A DNA stretch of 43,268 nucleotides from Patescibacteria group bacterium (GTDB taxonomy: Bacteria; Patescibacteriota; Patescibacteriia; Patescibacteriales; UBA12465): the NCBI GenBank assembly GCA_029982795.1, contig JARRBY010000003.1, forward strand, positions 1 to 43,268, given 5' to 3'. Positions 4,988-29,551 of this stretch are shown one piece after another. The position numbers and the translations under genes were made by a program. The stretch's first letter is position 1; every line of letters begins with the position of its first letter. Under the pieces are notes generated by a model. It searched no databases. It was not told the DNA's origin and saw only the letters and a list, made by a program, of their open reading frames with translations.

Positions 4988-6169
4988 ATGAGTAAAAATT
5001 GTTTGATTGTTAATACCGGCAGTGCTTCTAAAAAATATAGTTTTTATATTGGTGAAGAAAAAAAATATAGTGCTCATTTTGAAAAAGAGGGCAACTCTCT
5101 TATTGTTACCGAAACTATTGGAGATAACAAGGAAAAAAAAGTTTTAAATGATAATGATTATCCGCAGTCTGCTCGTTTTGTAATTGACTCCTTAGTTAGG
5201 GAGCAAATTATTGCTAATGAAAACAATTTACAAGTAATTGGAATTAGAATTGTTGCTCCCGGTAATTTCTTTTTAGAAACAAAAAAAATTGATGAGGATT
5301 ATATTAAAAGAGCTGAAGAAGCTCTTGAGAAAGTTCCTCTTCATTTAGCCCCAGCTTTAACTGAAATTAAAAATCTTAAATCTATTTTTGGTGAGAGTAT
5401 ACCAATTATTGGTGTTTCCGATAGCGCTTTTCATAAAACTATACCGCTTGAAAATAAATTATATTCAATTCCCATTGCTGATACTCGTAAATATGAAATT
5501 TATCGTTTTGGTTATCACGGAATTTCAGTTCAATCTATCGTTTGTCAAATAAAAGAAAAATTATCTTATATTCCAGAAAAAATGATAGTTTGTCATTTGG
5601 GTGGAGGAGCAAGCATAACTGCGGTTTTAAAAGGGAAAAGTGTGAATAATACGATGGGGTTTACCCCGCTTGAAGGTTTAACTATGGCCACTCGGGTGGG
5701 TGATATTGATCCCGGAGTAGTCCTTTTTCTTGCTGAAAAATTAAATTTAAATCGAAGTGAATTAAATCATTACTTTAATAATAAATGTGGACTTTTAGGT
5801 TTATCGGGTTCAAGTGATGATATTAGGGAACTTTTAAAAAAAGAAGAAGAGGGAGAAAAGGACGCCGCTTTAGCTTTGAAAGTTTATGTGGAAAGAGTAA
5901 AGGAAAATATTGCGAAAATGGCAGCTAATTTAGGAGGAGTTAATCTGCTGGTTTTTGCCGGTACGGTGGGAGAGCGTTCCTTTGTTTTACGTGAAAGAAT
6001 CTGTTCAAAACTTGAATATATGGGTATTGTTTTAGATAAGGTGAAAAATGACGGTAATGAGGGGAGTCGTTTAGATTTAGAAGCAAAGACAAGTTTGGCT
6101 AAAATTATGATAATTAAAACTGATGAAATGGCGGAAATTATTAAAGCTGTTTACAAGGTTGATTTATAA
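4988..6169 (+). CDS. ackA: Acetate kinase
   Basis: NTGSASKK, PLH, DSAFH, RFGYHGIS, CHLGGGAS, TMGFTPLEGL-MATRVGDIDP, TDE. Confidence 0.95.
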   Translation: MSKNCLIVNTGSASKKYSFYIGEEKKYSAHFEKEGNSLIVTETIGDNKEKKVLNDNDYPQSARFVIDSLVREQIIANENNLQVIGIRIVAPGNFFLETKKIDEDYIKRAEEALEKVPLHLAPALTEIKNLKSIFGESIPIIGVSDSAFHKTIPLENKLYSIPIADTRKYEIYRFGYHGISVQSIVCQIKEKLSYIPEKMIVCHLGGGASITAVLKGKSVNNTMGFTPLEGLTMATRVGDIDPGVVLFLAEKLNLNRSELNHYFNNKCGLLGLSGSSDDIRELLKKEEEGEKDAALALKVYVERVKENIAKMAANLGGVNLLVFAGTVGERSFVLRERICSKLEYMGIVLDKVKNDGNEGSRLDLEAKTSLAKIMIIKTDEMAEIIKAVYKVDL

Positions 6170-10020: not shown

Positions 10021-12324
10021 ATGACAAACAGTAAACGTGAGGCGATTGGTAAAATCAGAAAACGGGATGGTCGCTTAGTGGCTTTCGATGCCAATTTTAT
10101 TATTAACGCTGTTACCAAAGCTTTTAAGCAAGTTGGGGCAGAAACTAACGGTTTTCCTAAAAAAATTAGTCAACAAGTAGAATCGGATTTACGTCGTTTG
10201 AAACGTTTATCAAAGGATAAAGACTTTATTCCCACAGTTGAAGTTATTCAAGATATAGTTGAGGAACAATTGATGATAAATGGATTTTCTAAGGTAGCTC
10301 GAGCTTATATTTTATATCGTGAAGAAAGGGCAAAAATTAGAGCAGCCGCTCGAAAAGTACCAGAACATGTAAAAAAATTAACTCAAGAAAGTAAAAAATA
10401 TTTTAAAAATCCCCTTGCTGAGTTTATTTTTTATCGCTCATATTCTCGTTGGATAGAGGAAGAAGGAAGACGTGAAACTTGGATAGAAACCGTTGATCGG
10501 TATATAAATTTTATGAAGGATAAATTGCAGGATAAGTTAACTGTCAAGGAATATGAAGAATTACGAGAGGCAATTTTAAAACAAGAAGTAATGCCTTCAA
10601 TGCGTTTAATGCAATTTTCCGGTAAAGCCGTCGAAAGAACTAATGTTTGTGCCTATAATTGTTCCTATATTGCTCCAGAAAATTTTCAAGATATTGCTGA
10701 AATCATGTATGTTTCTATGTGTGGTACGGGAGTAGGTTGGTCGGTAGAAAGTCGTAATGTGGAAAAATTTCCTCAAATTATGATTCAAACCGGGATAAAA
10801 AGAGATAAGTATATAATTCCTGATAGCAAGGAAGGTTGGGCAGATGCTTTGGCACTGGGAATGAAGGTTTGGGCAAAGGGAGAAGATATTGAATTTGATT
10901 ATTCATTGTTAAGACCGGCGGGAGCCCGTCTTAAAACCATGGGCGGAAAAAGTTCGGGCCCGGAGCCATTAAGACAGTTGTTAGACTTTACTCGTGTAAA
11001 AATGTTAAATCGTCAGGGCAGACGTCTAAGAACTATTGATTTGCATGATATTATTTGCATGATTGGCTATTGTGTTGTTTCTGGTGGTGTAAGGAGAAGC
11101 GCCATGATTTCATTATCTGACCTCGATGATAGAGATATACGTGATGCAAAAAAGGGGCAATTTTATATTACCGAACCACAAAGAAGTTTAGCAAATAATT
11201 CAGCGGTATTTATGAAAAAACCTGACAATGAAGAGTTTTTAAGTGAATGGTTGGCGCTTATTAAATCTGGTTCCGGAGAAAGAGGTATCTTTAATCGTGG
11301 TTCATTGGTAAAAACATTGCCGGCGCGCCGTTTGGAAATATTGCGTGAGAAAAAGGGGTTTTTCTCTGCTGATGGTCAAATTATGTTAGGTCAAATGGGT
11401 ACTAATCCTTGCGGGGAAATTATTTTGCAATCAAAGCAGTTTTGTAATTTATCTGAAGTGGTGGCAAGAGCTGAAGATGATGAAGAATCTTTACTGCGAA
11501 AGGTAAAATTAGCCGCTATTTTAGGGACTTATCAGGCCACTTTAACTGATTTCCCTTATTTATCAAAAACATGGCAAATAAATTGTGAAAGTGAACGTTT
11601 GTTGGGAGTTTCGGTGACTGGTCAATGGGATTCAAAAGTAGCTCGTGAGGAAAAGGTTCTACAAAAGTTAAAGGATGAGGCGGTAAGGGTAAATAAATTA
11701 TATGCGAAAAAATTTGGCATTAATCAGTCTTCTGCAGTAACTTGTGTTAAACCATCAGGCACAGTTTCACAATTAACTGATTGTGCTTCCGGAATGCATG
11801 CTCGTTATGCTCCTTATTATATCCGTCGCGTTCGTATTTCGGCAACTGATTCTTTATTTAGAATGTTACGTGATCAAGGAGTACCTTTTAAACCTGAAGT
11901 GGGACAATCATATGAAAATGCAACAACTTTTGTTTTTGAATTTCCGGTTAGAGCCCCAAAGGGGTCTATCTTTAGTCGTGATTTATCGGCTCTTGATCAG
12001 TTAGAGCATTGGAAGAAGGTAAAACTTAATTTCACAGAACATAATCCTTCTGTTACTATTTCTGTTGGTGAAAATGAATGGATAGAGGTAGCTGATTGGG
12101 TTTATAATAATTGGGATATAGTTGGTGGTTTATCTTTCTTGCCTCGTTCAAATCATATTTATGATCTTGCTCCTTATGAGGAAATTAATAAGGAAAAATA
12201 TGATGAATTGATGGTTAAATTTAAGGATATGGATTTTGCTCAAATTGTTGTTTATGAAAAAAAAGATGAAACTGAGGCAAAGAAAGAATTAGCTTGCGCT
12301 GGTGGCGCTTGTGAAGTTAATTAA
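10021..12324 (+). CDS. nrdJ: Class II adenosylcobalamin-dependent ribonucleoside-triphosphate reductase (monomeric type) with N-terminal ATP cone
   Basis: IRKRDGR ATP cone; AYNCSY, VVSGGVRRSAMISL, GTNPCGEI, FCNLSE, TCVKPSGTVSQL; C-terminal ACAGGACE. Confidence 0.95.
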   Translation: MTNSKREAIGKIRKRDGRLVAFDANFIINAVTKAFKQVGAETNGFPKKISQQVESDLRRLKRLSKDKDFIPTVEVIQDIVEEQLMINGFSKVARAYILYREERAKIRAAARKVPEHVKKLTQESKKYFKNPLAEFIFYRSYSRWIEEEGRRETWIETVDRYINFMKDKLQDKLTVKEYEELREAILKQEVMPSMRLMQFSGKAVERTNVCAYNCSYIAPENFQDIAEIMYVSMCGTGVGWSVESRNVEKFPQIMIQTGIKRDKYIIPDSKEGWADALALGMKVWAKGEDIEFDYSLLRPAGARLKTMGGKSSGPEPLRQLLDFTRVKMLNRQGRRLRTIDLHDIICMIGYCVVSGGVRRSAMISLSDLDDRDIRDAKKGQFYITEPQRSLANNSAVFMKKPDNEEFLSEWLALIKSGSGERGIFNRGSLVKTLPARRLEILREKKGFFSADGQIMLGQMGTNPCGEIILQSKQFCNLSEVVARAEDDEESLLRKVKLAAILGTYQATLTDFPYLSKTWQINCESERLLGVSVTGQWDSKVAREEKVLQKLKDEAVRVNKLYAKKFGINQSSAVTCVKPSGTVSQLTDCASGMHARYAPYYIRRVRISATDSLFRMLRDQGVPFKPEVGQSYENATTFVFEFPVRAPKGSIFSRDLSALDQLEHWKKVKLNFTEHNPSVTISVGENEWIEVADWVYNNWDIVGGLSFLPRSNHIYDLAPYEEINKEKYDELMVKFKDMDFAQIVVYEKKDETEAKKELACAGGACEVN

Positions 12325-12327
12325 AAT

Positions 12328-12864
12328 ATGTATTACACTGGTCAAGGTGATACTGGTAGCTCAAAATTATTTAATTCTTCCAGTCGATTAGCTAAAAGTG
12401 AACAAATTTTTGTAGTTTTAGGAACTTTAGATGAATTAAACTCATATTTAGGTTTTGCTTCAACTTTTAGTGAACAAGAAACACAAATTTTAGTCGCTCT
12501 TAAAAGGGAACAGGATAATTTATTTACTTTACAAGCTCATTTTGCCAAGGCTCAGTTAACAATTAGTCCGGATTTAATTATTAATTTGGAGGCTGATATT
12601 AATAAATGGGAAAAAGAAATAAGTCCCATTAATAATTTTATTGTTCCCGGCGGCAGCAAACTAAGTGCTATTTTAGATATAGCACGAACGATAGCACGTC
12701 GAGCAGAAAGGGAAGCCCTTTCCTTAAATACTGAGATTAGAATTAGTTATAATAAATTAGCTTTTGTTTATCTTAATCGTTTGTCTAGTTGGTTATATGT
12801 GTTAGCGCGACTTGCGAATTATAAAACGGAGCAACCGGAAATAACTCCGCAATATAATAAATAA
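12328..12864 (+). CDS. pduO: ATP:cob(I)alamin adenosyltransferase, PduO type
   Basis: YTGQGDTGSS, GTLDELNS, FIVPGG, ARTIARRAER, YLNRLSSWLYVLAR. Confidence 0.93.
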   Translation: MYYTGQGDTGSSKLFNSSSRLAKSEQIFVVLGTLDELNSYLGFASTFSEQETQILVALKREQDNLFTLQAHFAKAQLTISPDLIINLEADINKWEKEISPINNFIVPGGSKLSAILDIARTIARRAEREALSLNTEIRISYNKLAFVYLNRLSSWLYVLARLANYKTEQPEITPQYNK

Positions 12865-14691: not shown

Positions 14692-15123
14692 ATGCGTAAA
14701 AAAACTTTAGCTTTTATTGAAATTGCTTTAATTATAATTTTTATTTTTATTCTTCTTCTTTTTTCTTTATGGCTTTTAGAGCAGGGGAAAATAAGGGCTA
14801 ATGATGCGAAAAAGATAGCTGATGTAAAAGAAATACAGAGTGCTTTAGCTTTATATTTTCATGAAAATAATGATTATCCTGACATACTGGAAAGTAATAA
14901 TGCTTTACAAAGTCGAACAACAATTTATCTTGATATTGTTCCTGAAGCACCTATAAGCAAGGGGGAATGTGCTTCTTTTGGCTATAATTACCAAAGAAAT
15001 ATTGAACAAGAAGGGAATCCGTCCTATACTTTAGAGTACTGTCTTAGTCAAGCGTCAGCTGATATTCCAGCTGGAATAAATACGGCAACACCAGCTGGTT
15101 TAAGTTTAAGAAAAATTGATTAA
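14692..15123 (+). CDS. Type IV pilin / GspG-like protein with a degenerate prepilin motif
   Basis: KKTLAFIEIALII hydrophobic helix; RANDAKKIADVKEIQSALALYF..N..YP; C-terminal Cys pair (YTLEYCL). Confidence 0.8.
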   Translation: MRKKTLAFIEIALIIIFIFILLLFSLWLLEQGKIRANDAKKIADVKEIQSALALYFHENNDYPDILESNNALQSRTTIYLDIVPEAPISKGECASFGYNYQRNIEQEGNPSYTLEYCLSQASADIPAGINTATPAGLSLRKID

Positions 15124-15130
15124 TTTAAAT

Positions 15131-16270
15131 ATGGATATATACGAAAGGGCACTTAAATTACATAAAGAAAAAAAAGGAAAATTGGAGATAAAAAGCAAAG
15201 TTAAGATTAATGATAAAAATGATTTATCTTTAGCTTATAGCCCAGGGGTAGCCGCTGTATCTCGATTAATTGCGAGTGATAAAAAAAGTGCCTATACGCA
15301 CACTAATAAAGGTAATACTATTGCTGTGATTAGTGATGGGAGTGCTATTTTAGGCTTAGGTAATTTAGGGGCTTTAGCCGCTATCCCCGTAATGGAAGGA
15401 AAATGTGTTTTATTTAAGGAATTTGCCAATATTGATGCGATACCCATTTGCCTTGATACTCAGGATAGTGAAGAAATTATTAAAACTATTAAATATTTAG
15501 CACCAAATTATGGCGGAATTAATTTAGAAGATATAGCGGCTCCTCGTTGTTTTGAAATTGAGGCAAGATTAAAAAAAGAGTTAAATATTCCTGTTATGCA
15601 TGATGATCAACACGGTACGGCGGCAGTGGTATTAGCGGGTTTAATTAATGCTTTAAAAATTAAAAATATAAGTTACAGGGAGGCAAAAATTATTATTAAT
15701 GGGGCTGGTGCGGCTGGTTTAGCAATTGCAGATTTACTTATTAAATATGGTTTTTCTCAACTTATTGTACTTGATAGTAAAGGGGTGATACATGAGGGTC
15801 GCAGTGATTTAAATTTAGTTAAAGAAAAAATTGCAAAACTTACCAATCCGGAAAAAAAGAAAGGGGGCTTAGCTGAGGTTATTAAAAATACGGATGTTTT
15901 TATTGGTGTTAGTCAGGGTAAAGTTTTAACTAGAGAAATGATACTTAGTATGAGAGAAAAACCGGTTATATTTGCGCTTGCTAATCCTGAGCCAGAAATT
16001 ATGCCTGAAGTAGCCAAAGCGGCCGGCGCTTTTATTGTTGCTACTGGACGCAGTGATTATCCTAATCAAATTAATAATGTGCTTGCTTTTCCCGGTATTT
16101 TTCGAGGGGCTTTAGATAATAAAGTTGATCAAATTACCGATGAAATGTTGATTCAAGCTGCAAAAAATTTAGCTAGTTTAGTTAGCACGCCTACTCCTAA
16201 TGAGATTTTACCCAACCCATTTGATAAGCGGGTAGTTGTCGCTGTATCTAAAGCTATAAAAGTGTTATAA
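15131..16270 (+). CDS. NAD(P)-dependent malic enzyme (start moved to ATG 15131)
   Basis: LSLAYSPGVA, DGSAILGLGN, PVMEGK, INLEDIAAPRCF, HDDQHGTA, GAGAAG, ATGRSDYPNQINNVLAFPG. Confidence 0.95.
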   Translation: MDIYERALKLHKEKKGKLEIKSKVKINDKNDLSLAYSPGVAAVSRLIASDKKSAYTHTNKGNTIAVISDGSAILGLGNLGALAAIPVMEGKCVLFKEFANIDAIPICLDTQDSEEIIKTIKYLAPNYGGINLEDIAAPRCFEIEARLKKELNIPVMHDDQHGTAAVVLAGLINALKIKNISYREAKIIINGAGAAGLAIADLLIKYGFSQLIVLDSKGVIHEGRSDLNLVKEKIAKLTNPEKKKGGLAEVIKNTDVFIGVSQGKVLTREMILSMREKPVIFALANPEPEIMPEVAKAAGAFIVATGRSDYPNQINNVLAFPGIFRGALDNKVDQITDEMLIQAAKNLASLVSTPTPNEILPNPFDKRVVVAVSKAIKVL

Positions 16271-19899: not shown

Positions 19900-19928
19900 A
19901 ATCCAACTTGAAAAAGTTGGATTTTTTT
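19900..19928 (+). terminator. Intrinsic terminator before the gap operon
   Basis: AATCCAACTT-GAAA-AAGTTGGATT followed by a T run; TGCTATAAT -10 element at 19945-19953. Confidence 0.75.
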
Positions 19929-19997
19929 ATAAAAAATAAAAACGTGCTATAATAAATAAATAAGAAATTTTTATTTATTAATTTTATAGTTTTATTT

Positions 19998-21011
19998 ATG
20001 CAAAAAATAAATATCGCAATAAACGGCTTTGGCCGTATTGGTCGCAGTGCTTTAAAAATAATTGTTGATTGCTTTCCCAACATAAATATAGTTGCCATTA
20101 ATGATTTAGCTGATGTAGAAATTTTAGCGCATTTGCTTCGCTTTGATTCGGTTTATGGTAATTATAACAAATCAGTCAGTTACAGTGATAACAAGTTAAT
20201 TGTTGATAAAAAGAAAATTCCGGTTTTTGCTAGCAAAGATCCAAGCCAGCTTCCGTGGCAGCAATTAAAAGTTGATGTGGTGCTTGAGTGTACCGGCGTA
20301 TTTCGTGATAAAGAAGCGCTTAGTTTGCACCTTAAAGCTGGCGCTAAGAAGGTGATTCTTTCCGCTCCCGCTAAAGGCAAGGGGGTGAAAATGATAGTTC
20401 TGGGCGTAAATGAGAAAAAAATCTTAAAGGGAGATGACTTAATTTCTTGCGCTTCTTGCACTACTAATTGTTTAGCGCCGGCAACAGAAATAATTAGACA
20501 AAAATTTGGTATTAAAAAAGCTTTAATGACTACAATTCATGCTTATACGGCTAATCAAAATATAGTTGATGGCCCCAGTAAAGATAAACGTCGTGCTCGT
20601 GCCGGGGCTTTGAATATAGTGCCAACAACTACAGGAGCAGCCATTGCTACCACTGAAGTTATTCCTCAATTAAAGAATAATTTTGATGGCATGTCGGTAC
20701 GTGTACCGGTGCCAGTTGGCTCTTTGGTTGATGCTGTTTATATTTTAAAGAAAAAGACAACGGTGGCTGAAGTTAATGAGGTGTTAACAAAGGCCGCCGC
20801 GGGAAAGTTAAAAGGAATTATGGCTGTTACTCATGAGGAAATTGTATCTTCTGATATAATTGGGAATACCAACAGTACCATTATTGACGCTGCTTCAACT
20901 AAGGTTTTAGGAGGTGATATGCTAAAACTTATCTCTTGGTATGATAATGAGTGGGGATACTCTAATCGTTTAGTAGAGCTTGCTCTTTTAACCGCTAAAT
21001 TTATTAAATAA
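19998..21011 (+). CDS. gap: Type I glyceraldehyde-3-phosphate dehydrogenase
   Basis: INGFGRIGR, SCASCTTNCLAP, TIHAYT, SWYDNEWGYS. Confidence 0.98.
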   Translation: MQKINIAINGFGRIGRSALKIIVDCFPNINIVAINDLADVEILAHLLRFDSVYGNYNKSVSYSDNKLIVDKKKIPVFASKDPSQLPWQQLKVDVVLECTGVFRDKEALSLHLKAGAKKVILSAPAKGKGVKMIVLGVNEKKILKGDDLISCASCTTNCLAPATEIIRQKFGIKKALMTTIHAYTANQNIVDGPSKDKRRARAGALNIVPTTTGAAIATTEVIPQLKNNFDGMSVRVPVPVGSLVDAVYILKKKTTVAEVNEVLTKAAAGKLKGIMAVTHEEIVSSDIIGNTNSTIIDAASTKVLGGDMLKLISWYDNEWGYSNRLVELALLTAKFIK

Positions 21012-21027
21012 TTAAAAGATAAAAAAT

Positions 21028-21765
21028 ATGATGTTAAAAAATAAAGTAGCGATAGTAACCGGTGCTGCTTCGGGAATTGGACGAGCAATTGCTGATTTAT
21101 TTGTTAGCGAAGGTGCTAAGGTGATCTACTCTGATATTCATAAGAACCTGACTGGTTTTAAAACAAGTGCAAAAAAGGCAATTTATGTACCTTGTGATGT
21201 TTCCAATCAGGCAGAAGTAAAGGCTTTGGTAGCAAAAGCCAAGGAGATTTATAAGGGTTTGGATATTATGGTTAATAATGCTGGTGTTGGTGGATCAGGG
21301 GGGATTTTAGAAGTTTCGGCTGATGATTTTGACAGAACTCTTAAAATTAATTTATATGGAGTTTTTTATGGTACTCAGATTGCAGCTCAAACTATGAAAG
21401 CTGCTAAAACAAAGGGTAATATTATTAATATTTCATCTATTTTAGGAACGGTTGGGATGGAACAATCCTTAGCTTATTGCACTTCCAAGGGTGGAGTTGA
21501 ACAATTAACAAGAGCGGCTGCCTTAGATTTAGCTACACTGGGTATTCGGGTTAATGCAATTGCTCCCGCTTTTATTAAAACAAAGATGACGGAAGGCATT
21601 TTACATGATAAAAAATTTAATCAGATGATAGTTAATAATACTCCGCTTGGTTATGTGGGCGAGCCGAAAGATATAGCAAATGCGGCCCTTTATTTAGCGA
21701 GCGATAAGGCAAAGTATATTACCGGTAGTACTCTGCGTGTTGATGGAGGTTGGACTATACACTAA
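21028..21765 (+). CDS. Classical SDR-family oxidoreductase
   Basis: TGAASGIG, NNAG, NISS, YCTSK, IRVNAIAP, VDGG; Asp after beta-2 (YSDI) suggests NAD preference. Confidence 0.93.
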   Translation: MMLKNKVAIVTGAASGIGRAIADLFVSEGAKVIYSDIHKNLTGFKTSAKKAIYVPCDVSNQAEVKALVAKAKEIYKGLDIMVNNAGVGGSGGILEVSADDFDRTLKINLYGVFYGTQIAAQTMKAAKTKGNIINISSILGTVGMEQSLAYCTSKGGVEQLTRAAALDLATLGIRVNAIAPAFIKTKMTEGILHDKKFNQMIVNNTPLGYVGEPKDIANAALYLASDKAKYITGSTLRVDGGWTIH

Positions 21766-21766
21766 A

Positions 21767-22807
21767 ATGACAAATTTAGCGTTAATAAAAAAAATAGAAG
21801 AATCAGGGTTAACTGGTCGGGGTGGTGGTTCTTTTTCGGTTGCAAAAAAATGGCAATTAGTGAAAAAAAATTTAAAGGGTAATAATCCGGGATATATTAT
21901 TATAAATGGCGCTGAAGGTGAGCCGGAAGTAAAAAAAGATGGTTATTTATTAGCGCAAGAAACAGAATCAGTTATAGCCGGGGTTTATTATGCTTTTCTC
22001 TATTTAGGGAAAAAAAATGTTAAGGCAATTTATTTCTATTTAAATCCAATATATTTTAAAAAATATAGAGCAAGAATTGAAAAAGTATTAAAGAATAGTT
22101 TGTATAAAGAATTGGCAAAAAAAGTGATTTTTTATAAAAAATCGGAAGAGAGTGGTTATATTGGCGGGGAAGAGAGTGTGGTAATAAATATTATAAGCGG
22201 CAAAAAAGCTCAGCCAAACCAGAGACCGCCATTTCCAGTTGAAATTGGTTTATTTGAAAAACCAACTCTAATTAATAATGTTGAGACTTTTTATAATATC
22301 GCTTTAATTGCTACAGGTGTTTACGATAACAAACGGCTTTATACTTTAGCGGGAGCTTGTCGTCATAAAGGAGTGTATAATTTACCCGCTACTATGAGTA
22401 TCGCTGATGTTCTGCAGGCCACTGATAATTATCCCGATTTTCCTTTTTTTGTTATTGCCGGTGGTGGAGTTTGTGGAGAAGTTTTAGATGAAAATCAACT
22501 TTTAGCCGGGGTGGAAGGTTCGGGTTTGATTATGATTTTTGATCATCGTCAAACTGATTATGATAAGTTGCTTAATTATTGGTTACGATTTTATAAAAAC
22601 CAAAGTTGTGGTTTATGTACTCCTTGTCGTGAAGGTAGTTATCGTTTGCATGAATTAGCTAAGGAAAAAAAGATTAAGGAGGAAAAATTTATTGATCTTT
22701 TAGACAATTTAGAACAAAGTACTTTTTGTGCTCTAGGTTCTTCTTTAACCTATACGGTGAAAAGTTATTTAGAAAATATTTATTTTAAATATAAAAAATA
22801 TGACTGA
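21767..22807 (+). CDS. Compact NuoF/HydB-like FMN/NADH-binding diaphorase subunit (start moved to ATG 21767)
   Basis: SGLTGRGGGSF..KKW, NGAEGEP..KD, YIGGEES, PTLINNVET, [4Fe-4S] ligands SCGLCTPCREG...FCALG. Confidence 0.9.
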   Translation: MTNLALIKKIEESGLTGRGGGSFSVAKKWQLVKKNLKGNNPGYIIINGAEGEPEVKKDGYLLAQETESVIAGVYYAFLYLGKKNVKAIYFYLNPIYFKKYRARIEKVLKNSLYKELAKKVIFYKKSEESGYIGGEESVVINIISGKKAQPNQRPPFPVEIGLFEKPTLINNVETFYNIALIATGVYDNKRLYTLAGACRHKGVYNLPATMSIADVLQATDNYPDFPFFVIAGGGVCGEVLDENQLLAGVEGSGLIMIFDHRQTDYDKLLNYWLRFYKNQSCGLCTPCREGSYRLHELAKEKKIKEEKFIDLLDNLEQSTFCALGSSLTYTVKSYLENIYFKYKKYD

Positions 22808-23564
22808 AGAAAAAAATGAAATTACTGTTCAACCGGTTGATAAAAAAAAGGAATTACCCTCTTTTTTTAGCAGTTTAGAAAGGGCAACTAAATTATGGTG
22901 GAAACATTTAAAAAAAATTGTTTTAATTTATTTAGAAGGGCTTAAATTAGCCTTAATTCCTTTACTTATTTTGCTTTCAATAATAGTTTTGGATTTTAAT
23001 TTATTTAGTGAGCGGTTTTCTTTAGCTTGGCTTGATTTAGTTTTATTTGTGGCCTCTTTTCTATTAACCTTTTACTTTTTTTCACGAGCGGAGATTGCTA
23101 TTTTCCTTTTTATAAAAAATGGTTTTAAAGGTGAAGCCAAAACTTTGTTTAAAAAAACACGTCCTTTATTTTGGCCCTATTTTTGGCTGGGTTTATTAAC
23201 CTTTATTTTAATTTTTTTATGGAGCCTGCTTTTAATTATTCCCGGTTTAATATTTAGCGCTTATTATGTTTTAGCGGTGTATGCTTTTTTCAGTGAAGGA
23301 AAAAAAGGTTGGTCGGCTATTTCGCGAAGCAAATTTTTAGTAAATGGTTATTTTTGGCCCATATTTGGACGTTTCCTTTTTTTCTTCATTTTAGCTTATT
23401 TGTTTGGTAGTATTATTGACATCCCTCAATCAGTTTTAACTGAAGATAGTGTGATGTTTAAAACTTGGGATTTGATTGAACAAGTTATTATTACTTTAGT
23501 GATTCCTATTTTCATTATTTTCTTTTACGACGTTTATGATTTCTTAGCTAAGAGCAAAAAATAA
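22800..23564 (+). CDS. Integral membrane protein (about 5-6 TM; resembles GDPD-membrane-domain-like families)
   Basis: Hydrophobic segments; WSLLLIIPGLIF and AISRSKFLVNGYFW pattern; overlaps the nuoF-like stop by 8 nt. Confidence 0.8.
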   Translation: MTEEKNEITVQPVDKKKELPSFFSSLERATKLWWKHLKKIVLIYLEGLKLALIPLLILLSIIVLDFNLFSERFSLAWLDLVLFVASFLLTFYFFSRAEIAIFLFIKNGFKGEAKTLFKKTRPLFWPYFWLGLLTFILIFLWSLLLIIPGLIFSAYYVLAVYAFFSEGKKGWSAISRSKFLVNGYFWPIFGRFLFFFILAYLFGSIIDIPQSVLTEDSVMFKTWDLIEQVIITLVIPIFIIFFYDVYDFLAKSKK

Positions 23565-23568
23565 GAAC

Positions 23569-25266
23569 ATGCAGGTAATTATTGATAAAAAAAAGATAGA
23601 GGCCAAAAAAAATGAAACTATTTTGGCGGTTGCACAGAGAGTTGGGATAGATATTCCTTATCTTTCATTTAATCCCGAACTTAGAGGTAAAGGGGGTGAT
23701 AGAGTGGCTTTGGTTGAAGTAAAAGGTGAAAGTAAGTTAATGTCGGCGGAAACTACAAAAGTGCGCGAAGGAATGATAATTTTTACCAATTCAAGTAAAG
23801 TACAGCGTTTTCGTCGTTTAAATTTAGAATTAATTTTTGCGTCTCATATTGAAAAATGCGCTGATTGCACTTTGCGTTTTAATTGTCGTCTTTTGGAATT
23901 AGCGCGTCTTCAGCAAATAAAAATTAGTGAGTTTTCTGATCGAAAAGCTTTGCGTAAAACCTATCGCTTTTCTACTGCGGTTGAAATTGATGGAACGCAA
24001 TGCATTGATTGTGGTAACTGTATTGAAGCTTGCGCTTTGCAGGGAATTAATTTTCTCCAATTTACAGGTAAAGGTTATCAGCAAGAGTTAAAGCCAACAA
24101 ATGATAAAAGTAGAGTTTGTATTCATTGTGGGCAATGTACTAATGTTTGTCCGGTAGCGGCCGCTCAAGAACAGCTGGAGTGGCCACAGGTGGAAAAGGT
24201 TTTAGCTGATAAAACTAAGATAGTGGTGGCGCAATTTGCTCCCGCCGCTCGCGTTTCTATTGGTGAAGAGTTTGGAATGAAACAAGGAACTGATTGTACT
24301 AAAAAAATAAATACCGCCCTTAAAGAATTGGGCTTTGCTTATAGTTTTGATATTAATTTTGGGGCCGATATTACAACGATGATTGAGGCTGAAGAATTAT
24401 TGCAACGTTTAAAAAACAAAAAGAATTTACCCCTTTTTACTTCTTGTTGTCCGGCTTGGGTTACTTATGCTGAATCATATTATCCTGAATTACTCCCCCA
24501 TCTTACCACCGCTCGCTCTCCTCATATTCATAGTGCGGGGGCAATTAAGACCTATTTTGCAAAGAAAAAAGGGTTAGATAGACGGCAAATTAAGGTTGTG
24601 TCTATAGTCCCTTGTACAGCTAAAAAGCAGGAAGCTGTAAGAACTGAATTATATTATCAAAAAGAACCGCTAGTTGATTATGTCTTGACTGTTCGTGAAT
24701 TTGCTTTTATGCTAAAAAAGCGACAAATTGACTTGGCTCGATTGAAAGAAAGTGAAACTGAACCTTTATTTAATGATGGTTCGGGGGCGGCGGCTATTTA
24801 TGGTGCTTCCGGCGGTGTAATGGAATCGGCTTTGCGGACGGCTCTTTTTTTAAACAGTACCAAAGAAAAAAAGATTTCTAATGATTTTCGCTTAGATTTT
24901 AAAGAATTGCGACTTAATAAAAATATTAAGGAAGCGGAAATAATGTTGGGAAAACGAAAATTGCGACTGGCCGTTATTAATGGAATTGCCAATTTTCATT
25001 ATATTTTACCCCATTTAAATAAATATCATTATATTGAAGTGATGGCTTGTCCGGGGGGATGTTTAGGTGGAGGAGGACAGCCTCTTCCTAATACTAAAGA
25101 AATCAAAGAAGCTCGAAGAAAAGCATTATACCAAATTGATAAAGATAAAAAAATCAGACGAGCTCATGAAAATAAAGCTATGTTAACTTATTATAATTGG
25201 GTTAAAACGAATAAATTAGAAGCTAAACTATTACATACAAAGTATTTTTCTCGAAAAAGAACTTAA
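23569..25266 (+). CDS. hydA: [FeFe]-hydrogenase catalytic subunit, group A
   Basis: L1 FTSCCPAW, L2 VPCTAKKQE, L3 EVMACPGGCLGGGGQP; HxxxCxxCx5C; two CxxCxxCxxxC motifs; C-terminal LLHTKY. Confidence 0.93.
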   Translation: MQVIIDKKKIEAKKNETILAVAQRVGIDIPYLSFNPELRGKGGDRVALVEVKGESKLMSAETTKVREGMIIFTNSSKVQRFRRLNLELIFASHIEKCADCTLRFNCRLLELARLQQIKISEFSDRKALRKTYRFSTAVEIDGTQCIDCGNCIEACALQGINFLQFTGKGYQQELKPTNDKSRVCIHCGQCTNVCPVAAAQEQLEWPQVEKVLADKTKIVVAQFAPAARVSIGEEFGMKQGTDCTKKINTALKELGFAYSFDINFGADITTMIEAEELLQRLKNKKNLPLFTSCCPAWVTYAESYYPELLPHLTTARSPHIHSAGAIKTYFAKKKGLDRRQIKVVSIVPCTAKKQEAVRTELYYQKEPLVDYVLTVREFAFMLKKRQIDLARLKESETEPLFNDGSGAAAIYGASGGVMESALRTALFLNSTKEKKISNDFRLDFKELRLNKNIKEAEIMLGKRKLRLAVINGIANFHYILPHLNKYHYIEVMACPGGCLGGGGQPLPNTKEIKEARRKALYQIDKDKKIRRAHENKAMLTYYNWVKTNKLEAKLLHTKYFSRKRT

Positions 25267-25271
25267 TTATT

Positions 25272-26711
25272 ATGAAAATTCCGGATTTTGTTATGACGAC
25301 AACAACTAAAATTAAAGCCGCTGGTTTTAAGGCTTTTATAGTAGGTGGTTGTGTTCGAGATTTTTTAATGAATAAAGAGCCTCAGGATTGGGATATAACA
25401 ACTAATGCTAAACCAGAAGAAATTGTTTCTCTTTTTCCCGAAGCTAAATATAATAATTCTTTTGGTACGGTTTTGTTACCTATTCGTGATCGTGAAGAAA
25501 AAATTATTACTGTTTTAGAAATTACAACCTATCGTAGTGAAGCGACCTATACTGATCGTCGCCATCCTGATAAGGTGGAATTTGAAAAGGAATTAGATAA
25601 AGATTTATCACGACGTGATTTTACTATTAATGCGTTAGCAATTGATCCTGCTAATCCTGATTTAATAGTTGACTTATTTGGTGGCCGTAAAGATATTAAG
25701 TTAAAAATAATCAGAGCAATCGGTGAACCGACCGATCGTTTTAAAGAAGATGCTTTAAGAATGTTACGAGCGGTGCGATTTGCGACTCAACTTGATTTTA
25801 CCTTAGAACCAAAAACAGAAAGAGCGATTATTAAATTAGCCGGTAGTCTTAAATTTGTTTCCAATGAAAGAATTAGGGATGAGTTTATAAAAATACTTGC
25901 TTCTGAAAGACCGGCGAAAGGCATAGAACTACTGCATAAAACTAAACTTCTGCAATATATTGTTCCAGAATTAGAGCAGGGAGTTAATGTAAAGCAAGAT
26001 AGACACCATATTTATCCGGTTTTTAAACATAACTTGTTAGCTTTAAAATACTGTCCTAGTAAAGATTGGCAAGTTCGTTTAGCCGCTCTTTTACACGATG
26101 TTGCTAAACCAAAAACAAGAAAAATTATAAAAAATATAGCAACTTTTTATAATCATGAATATTTGGGGGCAAAAATGGTTAATCGAATTATGACGAGGCT
26201 TAAATTTAGTAATGAAGATAGAGATAGAGTGGTTAATTTGGTAAAAAACCACATGTTCTATTATAATGTTGGTGAAGTAACGGCCGCTTCAGTGCGACGT
26301 TTAATTGCTAAAGTCGGTCGAGAAAACTTAGCTGATTTAATTGATTTACGAGTAGCTGATCGTTTGGGTTCCGGAACTCCCAAGGCGATGCCTTATAAAT
26401 TAAGACATTTGCAATATATGATGGAAAAAGTACAACATGATCCGATATCAGCAAAAATGTTAAAGGTAAATGGAAATACTTTAATGACTGCTTTAAAATT
26501 AGCACCGGGACCAAAAATAGGGGCTATTTTAGATGTTTTGTTAAGTGAAGTAATAGAAGACCCGAGTTTAAATGAAGAAGATAAACTTTTAGCAAGAGCA
26601 AAAAAATTAAATGAGCTTCAATTAGAGGAGTTACGCCGGAAAGCAAAGACGGTGATTGCTGAAAAAAGACAAGAAGAAGATAAAAATATTAAAAAACAAT
26701 TTAAAATTTAA
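25272..26711 (+). CDS. cca: CCA tRNA nucleotidyltransferase with HD domain
   Basis: VGGCVRD, DWDITT, RRDFTINA, EDALRMLRAVRF, ERIRDE, LLHDVAKP. Confidence 0.93.
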   Translation: MKIPDFVMTTTTKIKAAGFKAFIVGGCVRDFLMNKEPQDWDITTNAKPEEIVSLFPEAKYNNSFGTVLLPIRDREEKIITVLEITTYRSEATYTDRRHPDKVEFEKELDKDLSRRDFTINALAIDPANPDLIVDLFGGRKDIKLKIIRAIGEPTDRFKEDALRMLRAVRFATQLDFTLEPKTERAIIKLAGSLKFVSNERIRDEFIKILASERPAKGIELLHKTKLLQYIVPELEQGVNVKQDRHHIYPVFKHNLLALKYCPSKDWQVRLAALLHDVAKPKTRKIIKNIATFYNHEYLGAKMVNRIMTRLKFSNEDRDRVVNLVKNHMFYYNVGEVTAASVRRLIAKVGRENLADLIDLRVADRLGSGTPKAMPYKLRHLQYMMEKVQHDPISAKMLKVNGNTLMTALKLAPGPKIGAILDVLLSEVIEDPSLNEEDKLLARAKKLNELQLEELRRKAKTVIAEKRQEEDKNIKKQFKI

Positions 26712-26722
26712 TTATAGATATT

Positions 26723-27385
26723 ATGTTAAAAAAAATAGGATTAATTATATCTTTAGTTTCAATCACGCTACTTTTAAGTGCTTGTACAACCGAGAAGGAA
26801 ACAACAACTGGTGCGGTAAACAATAATTTAATTATTAATCAAAATATAAATAATAATATGAATAATAACAGAACCCTTGATGGTCAAGTGGATTTAGCGT
26901 CAGAATACAAAGCAGCGCTTATAAAAACTAATTTAGGTGACATTAAAGTAGAGTTTTATGCGGAAGAGTCGCCGTTAACTGTTAATAATTTTCTTAATTT
27001 AGCTAAAGATGGTTTTTATGATAATACTAAATTTCATCGTGTTATTAAGGATTTTATGATACAAGGTGGTGATCCTAATAGTCGGGGAGATAATTATATG
27101 ATCTATGGTACCGGTGGTCCGGGCTATACTTTTAAGGATGAAATTAATAATCATAAATTAGTAGCCGGTAGTTTAGCGATGGCTAATTCGGGGGCAAATA
27201 CCAATGGTTCCCAATTTTTTATTGTTACTCTTGATAGCACTCCTTGGCTTGATGGTAAGCATACTAATTTTGGTCAAGTTGTAGCGGGAATGGATGTAGT
27301 TATGAAAATAGAAGGAGTAACAACCGGGGAACGTGATATTCCTTTAGAACCGGTTGTAATAAATACAATAGAACTGTTACAATAA
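26723..27385 (+). CDS. Cyclophilin-type peptidyl-prolyl isomerase, lipoprotein
   Basis: Lipobox LSAC; FHRVIKDFMIQGGD, LAMANSGANTNGSQFFI, WLDGKHTNFGQV. Confidence 0.95.
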   Translation: MLKKIGLIISLVSITLLLSACTTEKETTTGAVNNNLIINQNINNNMNNNRTLDGQVDLASEYKAALIKTNLGDIKVEFYAEESPLTVNNFLNLAKDGFYDNTKFHRVIKDFMIQGGDPNSRGDNYMIYGTGGPGYTFKDEINNHKLVAGSLAMANSGANTNGSQFFIVTLDSTPWLDGKHTNFGQVVAGMDVVMKIEGVTTGERDIPLEPVVINTIELLQ

Positions 27386-27389
27386 AAAG

Positions 27390-27809
27390 ATGCCTAAAAT
27401 AGATAAAAAAATTAGAGCTTTAGCGGTTGTTATTATTAAACATAATAATCGTATTTTAGTATCACCGCTTTATGATAGAGAAAAAGATTGGCATTTCTTT
27501 CGCCTTTTAGGGGGAGGAATTGAGTTTGGAGAAAGAGCACAAGAAGCTTTAGAGCGTGAAATTAAAGAAGAGTTAGATAAAGAAATTGTAAATATTTCAC
27601 TTGTAGAAGTAAGTGAAAATATATTTCAGTATCAGGGGAAAAAGGGACATGAAATTTGTTTTATTTATCAGGCTGATTTTAAAAATAAGGCAGATTACAA
27701 TATAGAAGAATTTTCAATTTTAGATCAAGCTGATCGAAAAGCAATTTGGGTGGAATTAAATGAGGAAAATAGAAAAAAAATTACACCAATAATAAATAAA
27801 AAATATTAA
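27390..27809 (+). CDS. NUDIX hydrolase
   Basis: Nudix box GGGIEFGERAQEALEREIKEEL. Confidence 0.92.
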   Translation: MPKIDKKIRALAVVIIKHNNRILVSPLYDREKDWHFFRLLGGGIEFGERAQEALEREIKEELDKEIVNISLVEVSENIFQYQGKKGHEICFIYQADFKNKADYNIEEFSILDQADRKAIWVELNEENRKKITPIINKKY

Positions 27810-27813
27810 TTAT

Positions 27814-28968
27814 ATGAGAGTATATTTAGATAATGCGGCGACAACGCCTTTAGACCCTCGGGTTTTAAAAAAAATGTTACCTTATTTTACCGAAAAATTT
27901 GGTAATCCTGCTTCTATTCATGCCCTGGGACAAGAAGCTTTTATCGCTTTGGAAGAAGCAAGAGAAAAAGTTGCCAATATTTTAAAAGCCCCAAAAGATT
28001 CTCTGGTTTTTACTTCAGGAGCGACTGAATCAAATAATTTTATTATCAGAGGCCTTGCTTTAGCAAATAAAAATGAAAAAAGAAAACGGATTATTATTTC
28101 CGCAATTGAGCACCCTTGTGTTCGTGAAGCCGCCAGAAGATTAATGGTTGCGGGATATACTATTGATTATGTACCGGCTAATAAGGAGGGAATAGTGACT
28201 GCTAAGGCTTTAGAAAATCTAATAGGGGATGATGTTTTATTGGTTTCTGTTATGATGGTTAATAATGAAATTGGAACTATTCAGGATATCAAAAAATTAG
28301 CTACTATAGCCCATCGCTTTGGTGCTTATTTTCATAGTGACGCTGTTCAAGCCGTACCATATTTAAATATAGATATTAAGGCTTTAAAAGTAGATTTTTT
28401 AAGTTTATCAGCTCATAAGTTTTACGGACCAAAAGGAGTGGGCTTAGCTTATATTAATCCTGATATTAAAATGCAAGCTTTAATTGTTGGTGGTGGACAA
28501 GAAAATAATTTACGTTCCGGTACTCATAATTTACCCGGTATAATTGGTTTAAGTGAAGCGCTGTATTTAGCTTACCGGGAAAGAGATGAATATCTTAAAA
28601 GAATAAGTAAATTACAGAAATATTTTTGGGAAAAATTAAAACAAGAAATTCCTGAAGTTTTAATTAATGGTAGCTGGGAAAAAAGAGTTCCTGCTAATTT
28701 AAATGTGCGTTTTCGTTATATTGAAGGAGAAGCAATTTTAATGGATTTATCTCAAAAGGGAATTTGTGTTTCTACTGGTTCAGCTTGTTCTGCTTCAGAT
28801 TTAAGAGCTTCTTATGTTCTTAAAGAAATAGGATTAGATAAAAATTATTTAAATAGTAATATCCGTTTTTCATTTGGTCGTTTTACCACTAAAGCAGAGC
28901 TTGATTATACAATTAAGGCTTTAAAGCAAACGGTAAAAAGACTACGAGCTTTCTCTCCAATAAATTAA
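27814..28968 (+). CDS. iscS: Cysteine desulfurase, IscS/NifS type
   Basis: YLDNAATTP, FTSGATESNN, HSDAVQA, SAHKFYGPKG, STGSACS. Confidence 0.95.
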   Translation: MRVYLDNAATTPLDPRVLKKMLPYFTEKFGNPASIHALGQEAFIALEEAREKVANILKAPKDSLVFTSGATESNNFIIRGLALANKNEKRKRIIISAIEHPCVREAARRLMVAGYTIDYVPANKEGIVTAKALENLIGDDVLLVSVMMVNNEIGTIQDIKKLATIAHRFGAYFHSDAVQAVPYLNIDIKALKVDFLSLSAHKFYGPKGVGLAYINPDIKMQALIVGGGQENNLRSGTHNLPGIIGLSEALYLAYRERDEYLKRISKLQKYFWEKLKQEIPEVLINGSWEKRVPANLNVRFRYIEGEAILMDLSQKGICVSTGSACSASDLRASYVLKEIGLDKNYLNSNIRFSFGRFTTKAELDYTIKALKQTVKRLRAFSPIN

Positions 28969-29037
28969 AATTATTTTCTTGATTTTATTAATAATTTATA
29001 GTATATTTAGAAAATATAAAAAATTAAGCATTGAAAT

Positions 29038-29511
29038 ATGTCATTAAATTATACGAAAAAAACCTTAGAACATTTTTTAAGGCCAAAAAATATTGGGAAA
29101 ATTGTGCATCCTGATGGTTATGCACAAATTGGTAATATGGTCTGTGGTGACCAATTAGACTTTTTTTTGAAGGTAAAGGAGGGAAAAATTATTGATGTAA
29201 AATTTCTTTCTTTTGGTTGTGCTTCAAATATCGCTACTGCCTCTATTTTAACGGAGAAAGTTAAAGGTATGACGATAGAACAAGCTAAAAAATATGCTTG
29301 GCAAGAAGTAGTTGATGATTTAGGAGGGTTACCTAAACAAAAATTGCACTGCTCCGTAATGGCAGTTCAAGGTTTAAAAAAGGCAATTTCCGATTATGAG
29401 GAAAAACAACAAGTGTTACCTAAAGTAAAAAAAACCAAGAAAAAGGAAGAAAAAACCAAGAAAAAAATAAGTGTAAAAAAATCAAGTTTAAAAAAAACCA
29501 AGAAAAAATAA
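29038..29511 (+). CDS. iscU: Fe-S cluster scaffold IscU/NifU-N with a Lys-rich tail
   Basis: HFLRPKNIG, CGD, FGCAS, KLHCS; KKTKKK three times in the tail. Confidence 0.93.
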   Translation: MSLNYTKKTLEHFLRPKNIGKIVHPDGYAQIGNMVCGDQLDFFLKVKEGKIIDVKFLSFGCASNIATASILTEKVKGMTIEQAKKYAWQEVVDDLGGLPKQKLHCSVMAVQGLKKAISDYEEKQQVLPKVKKTKKKEEKTKKKISVKKSSLKKTKKK

Positions 29512-29517
29512 GATAAT

Positions 29518-29551
29518 AAAAAACGCCCAACAATTAAGTTGAGCGTTTTTT
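29518..29551. terminator. Bidirectional intrinsic terminator
   Basis: AAAAACGCCCAAC/GTTGAGCGTTTTT. Confidence 0.8.

Follow-up and report, generated by a model that had tools for sequence, protein, structure and literature searches.

A conserved gap-nuoF-like-hydA unit in a Patescibacteria genome: a candidate minimal NADH-linked [FeFe]-hydrogenase without NuoE or maturases

Non-bifurcating, NADH-dependent HydAB and HydABC hydrogenases have already been described; all of them keep a NuoE-like part, and 2.2-40.2 Pa H2 was produced at NADH/NAD+ ratios of 1-5 (PMC7311640). In the HydABC complex of Thermotoga maritima, the flavin mononucleotide (FMN) is linked to the H-cluster by the chain B2-A1-A2-A3 (PMC9499530), in which A1 would be the N-terminal [2Fe-2S] cluster, to judge by a process of elimination in that text and by its homology with cluster N1b of complex I. 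Bfu enzymes share an invariant BfuBC core with six clusters (PMC9304861), and maturase-less archaea and protists have been reported to make or encode active [FeFe]-hydrogenases (PMC11216029). Here we describe a locus on a 43,268-nt stretch of DNA (the window; contig JARRBY010000003.1 of assembly GCA_029982795.1, contig C7 in our numbering) from the 668,587-bp, 35-contig genome of a groundwater Patescibacteria member (98.77% complete, 0.55% contaminated), in which a glyceraldehyde-3-phosphate dehydrogenase (GAPDH) gene, gap, is followed by genes for a short-chain dehydrogenase/reductase (SDR), a compact NuoF-like flavoprotein, a membrane protein and HydA.

The sequence evidence makes the gap-nuoF-like-hydA unit a good candidate for a minimal, non-bifurcating NADH-linked hydrogenase, a NuoE-less and maturase-less form of HydAB(C). 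Since the known non-bifurcating NADH hydrogenases all keep a NuoE-like part, a NuoE-less form would be new. A search of openly available main texts found no description, for Patescibacteria or the candidate phyla radiation, of a [FeFe]-hydrogenase that lacks maturases or has NuoF as its only partner. The terms FeFe, maturation, maturase, HydE and NuoF each had zero occurrences in PMC7304191, PMC10811913 has a single passing mention of the topic, and PMC5581439 deals with other hydrogenases. The mechanism in this genome is less clear than was assumed in a first-pass annotation of the window: the relay cluster between flavoprotein and hydrogenase has been lost, ferredoxin offers another source of electrons, and maturation still lacks an explanation.

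Sequence features of the NuoF-like protein and HydA

The 346-aa NuoF-like protein aligned to residues 52-418 of the complex I subunit Nqo1 and to residues 177-543 of T. maritima HydB, and, relative to Nqo1, is shorter by some 50 residues at the N-terminus and by a portion of the SLBB region. It retained the FMN loop, the GEP nucleotide loop, YIGGEE and the four N3 Cys (C281, C284, C287 and C321, invariant in an alignment of 36 sequences), and YxxGEE and CxxCxxCREG were present in 120 of 120 clusters of its family. Pfam searches and alignment revealed no NuoE-like domain, no N-terminal [2Fe-2S] of the HydB type and no C-terminal 2x[4Fe-4S] ferredoxin domain. The only Complex1_51K gene of the genome, it scored 174 bits against TIGR01959, the complex I NuoF equivalog, below the cut-off of 559. 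Among 8,000 scored candidates, 3,079 matched the NuoF-like family; these were mostly about 340 aa long and were set apart from ordinary NuoF (36-55% identity versus at most 33%). The first-pass description of an FMN/NADH core with one [4Fe-4S] motif, starting at ATG 21767, agreed with the Pfam content and with the starts of homologues; an in-frame GTG lies at 21737. At loci L025-L028 and L030, from other families, the NuoF-like protein is longer at its C-terminus by ~20-25 residues, among which are one or two additional Cys (at most a CxC pair); the genus-level proteins have no such extension.

Bifurcating enzymes are marked by A/E and M at T. maritima HydB positions 232/234, F at the equivalent of Nqo1 Y180, and GGPSG (PMC7311640). 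Our protein has V at 232, which fits neither class, K at 234, Y at the Nqo1 Y180 equivalent and GGGVCG, so that all but the V are of the non-bifurcating type, and the six-cluster BfuBC core is absent. As in the non-bifurcating NADH hydrogenases, a NuoF-type beta subunit with FMN, an NADH site and one [4Fe-4S] is encoded beside hydA. Every sequence criterion that we applied thus supports a non-bifurcating NuoF-like/HydA module, and the earlier picture of a stripped two-subunit module, lacking HydC/NuoE and the extra HydB clusters, stands. The premise behind it, that bifurcating HydABC needs those parts, was put too strongly, since non-bifurcating NADH-dependent HydAB/HydABC are known, although all of these keep a NuoE-like part.

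HydA (565 aa) scored 424 bits against TIGR02512 (group A; cut-off 406), in agreement with its first-pass classification. Its best NCBIfam model was NF040763, 'NADH-dependent [FeFe] hydrogenase, group A6' (584 bits, below the cut-off of 765), and it scored 473 bits against NF040762 (below the cut-off of 900). Among solved relatives, the bifurcating HydA1 of Thermoanaerobacter kivui was nearest (1.3e-122), followed by CpI of Clostridium pasteurianum (2.5e-111). H-cluster motifs take the form TSCCPxW (L1), MPCxxKxxE (L2) and ExMxCxxGCxxG (L3); HydA has FTSCCPAW, VPCTAKKQE and EVMACPGGCLGGGGQP, intact save for V in place of M in L2. This V, at the position of CpI M353, is common to 86 of the 120 closest clusters. 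Alignment to CpI gave equivalents of the proton-path residues C299, E279, E282, R286 and S319, and of K358. Across 21 aligned HydA sequences, 45-64% identical, the four H-cluster Cys were invariant, the proton-path Cys (C299 equivalent) was present in 20, and the equivalents of E279, E282, R286, S319, K358 and M497 were invariant or nearly so. Ligands of the His-ligated [4Fe-4S] (H93, C97, C100, C106) and of the 2x[4Fe-4S] domain (C145, C148, C151, C155 and C184, C187, C190, C194) were invariant in all 21. By these motifs, HydA is a group A [FeFe]-hydrogenase homologue with a complete H-cluster site and proton pathway; since the H-cluster and proton-path residues are kept at 45-64% identity, the [2Fe] site appears to be under selection. 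The stretch was recovered in four assemblies (DNA runs) of one subsurface-metagenome study, whose contigs confirm the sequence with a handful of single-nucleotide polymorphisms (SNPs); those in hydA comprise 7 synonymous and 2 non-synonymous changes.

The first-pass annotation missed that HydA has no Cys in residues 1-96 and that all four [2Fe-2S] ligands of its Fer2_4 domain are therefore gone, with LC replaced by LS, SCRVCVVE by GGDRVALVE and TACST by SAETT. Four or more N-terminal Cys are kept in 19 of the 21 aligned sequences. Among the 120 best HydA clusters, formed at 90% identity, the seven closest (66-100% identical) are Cys-less and retain L1, L2 and L3, while 112 have four or more Cys and one is an N-terminally truncated record. 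In a quick IQ-TREE maximum-likelihood tree (a careful search did not finish), the Cys-less rows lay on one side of a branch with an SH-like approximate likelihood ratio test (SH-aLRT) support of 100. A Cys-less state shared by seven clusters on one such branch means that the loss is old and stable.

The sister-lineage genome G019 has a strongly degenerate HydA (locus L034 10084-11649) on a very long branch of this tree: TSCCP has become SSACP, L2 reads VACPAKK, and GGVMESALR and the C-terminal tail are lost. The NuoF-like gene beside it retains all of its motifs, and G019 is a possible case of a NuoF-like protein that has outlived hydrogenase chemistry.

Modelling of NuoF-like with HydA gave a docked complex with an interaction prediction score from aligned errors (ipSAE) of 0.83 in three runs, against 0.00 for the best of three controls, though resemblance to the solved HydABC and complex I structures may account for this score. 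Of 80 solved complexes 58 reached the ipSAE mark, as did 2 of 110 mismatched pairs; because the model used our own alignments, this calibration applies only approximately. The runs agreed in at least 95% of contacts, with a partner predicted local distance difference test value (pLDDT) of at least 88. In the model, NuoF-like residues 277-293 and 307-325, which surround the N3 Cys, meet HydA residues 41-64 and 77-91 (the former [2Fe-2S] loops), 147 and 165-172. Because HydABC and complex I have been solved, the model shows likeness to them and is no proof that this copy binds.

Conservation and layout of the operon

Conservation was evaluated in a related set of 41 genomes, made up of the window's own, 24 others from its genus and 16 from other families of the order. 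The NuoF-like protein had a full-length match in 30 genomes, with contig-end fragments in G013 and G017, and HydA had a strong match (E <= 1e-100) in 31. Wherever contigs permit, nuoF-like and hydA adjoin; a contig break separates them in G010. Both genes are absent from nine genomes (G001, G003, G004, G021, G023, G027, G028, G033 and G040), and five members of the genus lack the hydrogenase module. The operons of G023 (gap, membrane protein, cca, ppi) and G021 (gap, SDR, membrane protein, cca) are otherwise intact with both genes gone, so nuoF-like and hydA have been acquired or lost together.

Mapping of 20 related loci by tblastn placed gap 5' of nuoF-like in 19 (the exception being L029) and the SDR between them in 7. 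The membrane protein lay between nuoF-like and hydA in 12, with a weaker match in G019, and hydA was followed by cca and ppi in most genus-level loci, the linkage to nifS being looser. In named GTDB representative loci, hydA followed nuoF-like in 16/16 and gap preceded nuoF-like in 11/16; two of the five misses were contig starts. The linkage of nuoF-like to hydA, on which the earlier reading depended, is thus conserved in all named loci and in co-occurrence across the related set, and Falkowbacteria-like Patescibacteria share the conserved core gap -> nuoF-like -> hydA. The same arrangement, with identities of 41% and 48% for the compact NuoF-like protein and HydA, occurs after gap at locus L051 of a bin labelled Candidatus Woesearchaeota archaeon; its presence in a DPANN-labelled bin is due to mis-binning or else to transfer from one ultrasmall group to the other.

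In a phylum sample of 301 evenly drawn Patescibacteria genomes, Fe_hyd_lg_C was found in 35. Twelve of these, this genome included, pair a long HydA with a compact NuoF-like gene (a frame of 333-366 aa), and three genomes of the sample have the canonical arrangement of HydC, long HydB and HydA. In 17 of the 301 genomes the domain lies in a short frame of about 280-303 aa (for example G057:C1:424909-425592, G277:C1:398812-399492 and G214:C1:678825-679451); these are H-domain-only 'minimal' HydA homologues, and HydG was found in 0/17. Archaeal group E HydA has a mean length of 286 residues, near that of these short frames (PMC11216029).

The locus is best explained as one operon, whose features, with those flanking it, are as follows.

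19900-19923, + strand: terminator-like hairpin closing the upstream Wzy_C/TPR gene (10-pair stem, then T-run)
19926-19953, + strand: promoter-like site upstream of gap (TTTATA-16-TATAAT, TG before the -10 hexamer; consensus match only)
19998-21011, + strand: gap, type I glyceraldehyde-3-phosphate dehydrogenase (Gp_dh_N and Gp_dh_C; TIGR01534)
21028-21765, + strand: SDR, FabG/acetoin-reductase-like, a variable operon member (adh_short_C2, 4.9e-72)
21767-22807, + strand: NuoF-like compact flavoprotein, 346 aa (Complex1_51K and NADH_4Fe-4S only)
22800-23564, + strand: polytopic membrane protein, DUF7847/GPDPase_memb/UPF0259-like (language-model features)
23569-25266, + strand: hydA, group A [FeFe]-hydrogenase homologue, 565 aa (Fer2_4, two Fer4, Fe_hyd_lg_C and Fe_hyd_SSU; TIGR02512)
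25272-26711, + strand: cca, CCA-adding enzyme
26723-27385, + strand: cyclophilin (ppi)
27390-27809, + strand: NUDIX protein
27814-28968, + strand: NifS/IscS
29038-29511, + strand: NifU/IscU
29518-29551, strand not assigned: bidirectional terminator-like 14-pair hairpin closing the run (A-run before, T-run after)

The spacers from gap through hydA are 16, 1, -8 and 4 nt, and the open reading frames, Pfam and NCBIfam bear out the gene order first described. Ten + strand genes, gap through nifU, form a run flanked by the hairpins at 19900-19923 and 29518-29551. A terminator scan found four + strand hairpins within 19998-29511, all intracoding and of 5-7 pairs, and 12 terminator-like sites in the region in total, against 8.1 +/- 3.1 in shuffles. 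The first-pass claim of an unterminated run to iscS-iscU therefore holds in that only weak intracoding hairpins intervene, although it skipped three genes (cca, cyclophilin and NUDIX) and the linkage to iscS-iscU is loose outside this genome. The GAPDH scored 428 bits against TIGR01534 (cut-off 367), and its translation carries 'SCTTNC' and 'AIND', the latter of which we take to be a mark of NAD specificity. NCBIfam names for the SDR were mixed. Elsewhere in the window, ackA (4988-6169) and a malic enzyme gene (15116-16270) were located, as first reported, and positions 10021-12864 hold a gene resembling ATP-cone/class II (B12-dependent) ribonucleotide reductases, then a cobalamin adenosyltransferase gene.

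The membrane protein had no Pfam or NCBIfam family match; its language-model neighbours were clusters of the DUF7847/GPDPase_memb/UPF0259 type, with a score of 0.97 for the first match. In the first-pass annotation it was suggested to tether the two-subunit NADH-to-H2 valve to the membrane. Its gene does overlap nuoF-like by 8 nt and end 4 nt 5' of hydA, and it keeps this place in 12 of the 20 mapped loci and in G019. However, it is missing between the two genes in 7 of the 20; G024, G009 and most of the order's other families lack it at that place. It is similar to a widespread family of the DUF7847 type, and in G021 and G023 it still sits between gap/SDR and cca. Since it persists in loci without the hydrogenase genes, it is no hydrogenase-specific component and a tether role was rejected; we regard an anchor of this kind as extremely improbable.

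Maturation, electron donors and alternative explanations

The absence of NuoE/HydC and hydE/F/G noted within the window extends to the whole genome and to its 40 relatives. NuoE/HydC (PF01257) gave no match in the genome itself and 0/41 in the related set, in contrast to the same search in the phylum sample, which as a positive control recovered full-length HydC in three canonical Patescibacteria operons. HydG was found in 0/41 genomes, the window's own included; HydE in 0/41 above cut-off, with four matches of at most 24 bits; and HydF in 0/41 above cut-off, with GTPase-domain matches of at most 93 bits. These absences include two HydA-bearing single-contig genomes, G005 and G007. No second hydBC or nuoEF pair, the presence of which elsewhere in the genome had been raised as a check, was found by the PF01257 and Complex1_51K searches. 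The HydF-like matches were rejected as GTPase domains of a tandem-GTPase gene, presumably EngA/Der-like, and of two other genes, the best in the window's genome reaching 80 bits against a cut-off of 326. HydG exceeded its cut-off in 6 of the 301 phylum-sample genomes, of which G069 alone is among the 35 with Fe_hyd_lg_C. The other five (G106, G193, G203, G290 and G332) have an adjacent radical SAM match and no Fe_hyd_lg_C match, and so have maturase genes in the absence of any recognisable HydA.

Six radical SAM genes are present in the window's genome: MiaB, MtaB, RlmN, Elp3 and two uncharacterised ones, a SPASM-type gene (C15:2955-4181) and a B12-binding gene (C15:4686-6260). The latter two were considered as general maturases and rejected: neither has an orthologue in five HydA-plus and five HydA-minus relatives, where only paralogues turned up, at most 38% identical and matching over short stretches. 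The two adjoining genes (C15:2955-6260) are probably a strain-specific accessory cluster.

The first-pass annotation also missed that the genome carries genes for a four-subunit 2-oxoacid:ferredoxin oxidoreductase (PFOR; gamma, delta, alpha and beta) and for a 57-aa single-cluster ferredoxin; Ldh_1_N had no match in the genome. Within the PFOR cluster (G000:C25:30358-34375; L043 3359-7376), a 379-aa open reading frame with a weak T4SS_pilin match (4.8e-07) splits the alpha and beta genes. With PFOR and ferredoxin encoded, reduced ferredoxin is on hand to supply HydA with electrons, so that NADH is not the sole donor and perhaps not the main one. The surface [4Fe-4S] of CpI is a suggested ferredoxin site (PMC9499530).

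Taking gene order, co-occurrence, motif content and absences as observed, we infer complex formation, a direction of electron flow, H2 production and maturation along the following lines. In the lineage at large, the most likely product of the conserved core is a NuoE-free, non-bifurcating NADH:H+ oxidoreductase built as a heterodimer. NADH derived from GAPDH would reduce the FMN of the NuoF-like subunit, and electrons would pass from its single [4Fe-4S] to the N-terminal [2Fe-2S] of HydA, its two [4Fe-4S] and the H-cluster, yielding H2. Such a flow would be thermodynamically possible only at very low H2, and the [2Fe] subcluster would be acquired without HydE, HydF and HydG, by some other route. 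In the sub-lineage of the window, where both proteins are conserved, HydA would still make H2 despite its lost [2Fe-2S]; PFOR-reduced ferredoxin probably feeds it through the surface His-ligated [4Fe-4S], and the NADH input through the NuoF-like protein may be weakened, slowed or re-routed. The NADH-to-H2 valve for GAPDH-derived NADH envisaged at first is therefore upheld as to the compact module and its tight linkage to gap, but not as to its wiring, with the relay [2Fe-2S] lost and PFOR/ferredoxin as another donor.

Several points weigh against an NADH-driven, H2-producing enzyme of this kind. Since HydA lacks the [2Fe-2S], the canonical NADH-to-H2 wire has a gap in this genome and the proposed path is interrupted here, so that NADH may be unable to drive HydA in this genome. 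The modelled interface falls exactly on the vacated [2Fe-2S] site, and the complex score may stem from likeness to the solved HydABC and complex I structures. The NuoF-like protein has lineage-specific changes of its own, GEPE instead of GEPG at the nucleotide site and GRGGG.FSV, in the four closest clusters, which parallel the change in HydA. Its population SNPs, 4 non-synonymous versus 2 synonymous, are too few to interpret. In addition, a relative has the degenerate HydA described above, all known non-bifurcating NADH hydrogenases keep a NuoE-like part, and the lack of maturases, with HydG in only 1 of 35 HydA-bearing phylum-sample genomes, leaves an active H-cluster unexplained. On balance, an H2-producing NuoF-like/HydA enzyme as set out in the preceding paragraph is in our judgement about evenly poised between right and wrong. 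A bolder version, which we hold as doubtful, is that three rules are broken jointly: a NuoF protein active without NuoE, an H-cluster assembled without HydEFG through another pathway or host material, and electron flow from flavoprotein to HydA without an N1b-type relay. If true, gap-nuoF-like-hydA would be a hard-wired 'glycolysis-to-H2' cassette tying episymbionts to H2-consuming partners.

Alternatively, without HydEFG, HydA would be no hydrogenase in vivo and carry only Fe-S clusters, the pair being an NADH-linked iron-sulfur oxidoreductase (for example NADH:ferredoxin) loosely like Nar1-type HydA homologues. The absence of HydE, HydF and HydG from 41/41 genomes, the two single-contig genomes included, the scarcity of HydG across the phylum sample, the lack of orthologues of the two uncharacterised radical SAM genes in relatives and the presence of nifS and nifU in the same run would all fit. 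However, residues known only for a part in [2Fe]-subcluster binding or the proton path (equivalents of C299, K358, M497, E279, E282, R286 and S319) are invariant or nearly so at 45-64% identity, relaxed constraint looks different, as in the G019 copy with its SSACP and its lost GGVMESALR and C-terminal tail, and active [FeFe]-hydrogenases are reported to be made or encoded by maturase-less archaea and protists (PMC11216029); we consider a non-hydrogenase role unlikely. That the module is a decaying relic of a strongly reduced genome, with its relay cluster gone and its function fading, appears decidedly unlikely. It would be in keeping with a 669-kb genome, among the smallest of the genus sample, with the lost [2Fe-2S] ligands, with the degenerate HydA of G019 on the same side of the tree split, with the five genus members without the module and with the 4 non-synonymous and 2 synonymous SNPs in nuoF-like. 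Against it stand the seven Cys-less clusters, 66-100% identical to this HydA, which all keep L1, L2 and L3; the single branch (SH-aLRT 100 in the quick tree) of an old and stable loss; the predominance of synonymous SNPs in hydA over the four assemblies; and two intact reading frames, with all NuoF-like motifs kept.

The proximity of HydA to the bifurcating T. kivui HydA1, and the presence of both NADH (GAPDH) and ferredoxin (PFOR) sources, would suit an electron-confurcating hydrogenase that requires NADH and reduced ferredoxin together, as HydABC does. We consider this very improbable: no HydC/BfuC was found, the NuoF-like protein lacks the N-terminal [2Fe-2S] and C-terminal 2x[4Fe-4S], Bfu enzymes are described with an invariant six-cluster BfuBC core (PMC9304861), and the signature residues are of the non-bifurcating type.

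Comparison with known systems

The NuoF-like protein resembles complex I NuoF/Nqo1 (51-kDa) in its FMN loop, NADH site and N3 [4Fe-4S] ligands, and differs from it in that no NuoE was found, the TIGR01959 score is below cut-off and N-terminal and SLBB parts are missing. The Cys-less HydA clade beside its Cys-containing sisters offers a natural experiment on the need for an N1b/A1 relay in wires of the NuoF-NuoG type. HydA shares domain order and H-cluster and proton-pathway residues with C. pasteurianum CpI, which is monomeric and ferredoxin-dependent (A1, M3); unlike our protein, CpI binds an N-terminal [2Fe-2S], works without a flavoprotein partner and has M353 where V is found here.

With the maturase-less HydA of DPANN and Asgard archaea and of Giardia and Entamoeba, our HydA has in common intact catalytic motifs, small symbiont-like genomes and no HydEFG (PMC11216029). 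Those reports concern archaea and eukaryotes, whereas the present case is bacterial and has a NuoE-less partner; if the enzyme is active, the puzzle of hydrogenases without maturases, posed by DPANN archaea and protists, would reach the bacterial candidate phyla radiation as well.

Among HydABC/Bfu enzymes (T. maritima, 7P5H; T. kivui, 8A6T), T. kivui HydA1 is nearest to our HydA, and the predicted docking is of the HydB-HydA type (PMC9499530, PMC9304861). Unlike them, the locus described here has no HydC, no N-terminal [2Fe-2S] or C-terminal 2x[4Fe-4S] in the flavoprotein, no Bfu signatures and no A1-type relay.

The closest described systems are the non-bifurcating NADH hydrogenases (PMC7311640). 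In those enzymes a NuoE-like [2Fe-2S] is either separate or fused to the HydB N-terminus, whereas none was found here; the present beta subunit has 346 aa, HydA is without its N-terminal [2Fe-2S] and no maturases were found. If active, the pair (346 + 565 aa, no NuoE) would be the smallest NADH-linked [FeFe]-hydrogenase architecture known, and a two-gene NADH-dependent hydrogenase would be attractive as a biotechnological chassis. Through the strict linkage of gap, nuoF-like and hydA, ideas on how ultrasmall fermenters balance their redox state, and on how they depend on low ambient H2, can be put to the test. Like the non-bifurcating NADH hydrogenases, the unit joins a group A HydA to a NuoF-type FMN/[4Fe-4S] beta subunit with non-bifurcating residues and no extra clusters, and as for those enzymes its proposed role would be the reoxidation of NADH to H2 at very low H2 (PMC7311640).

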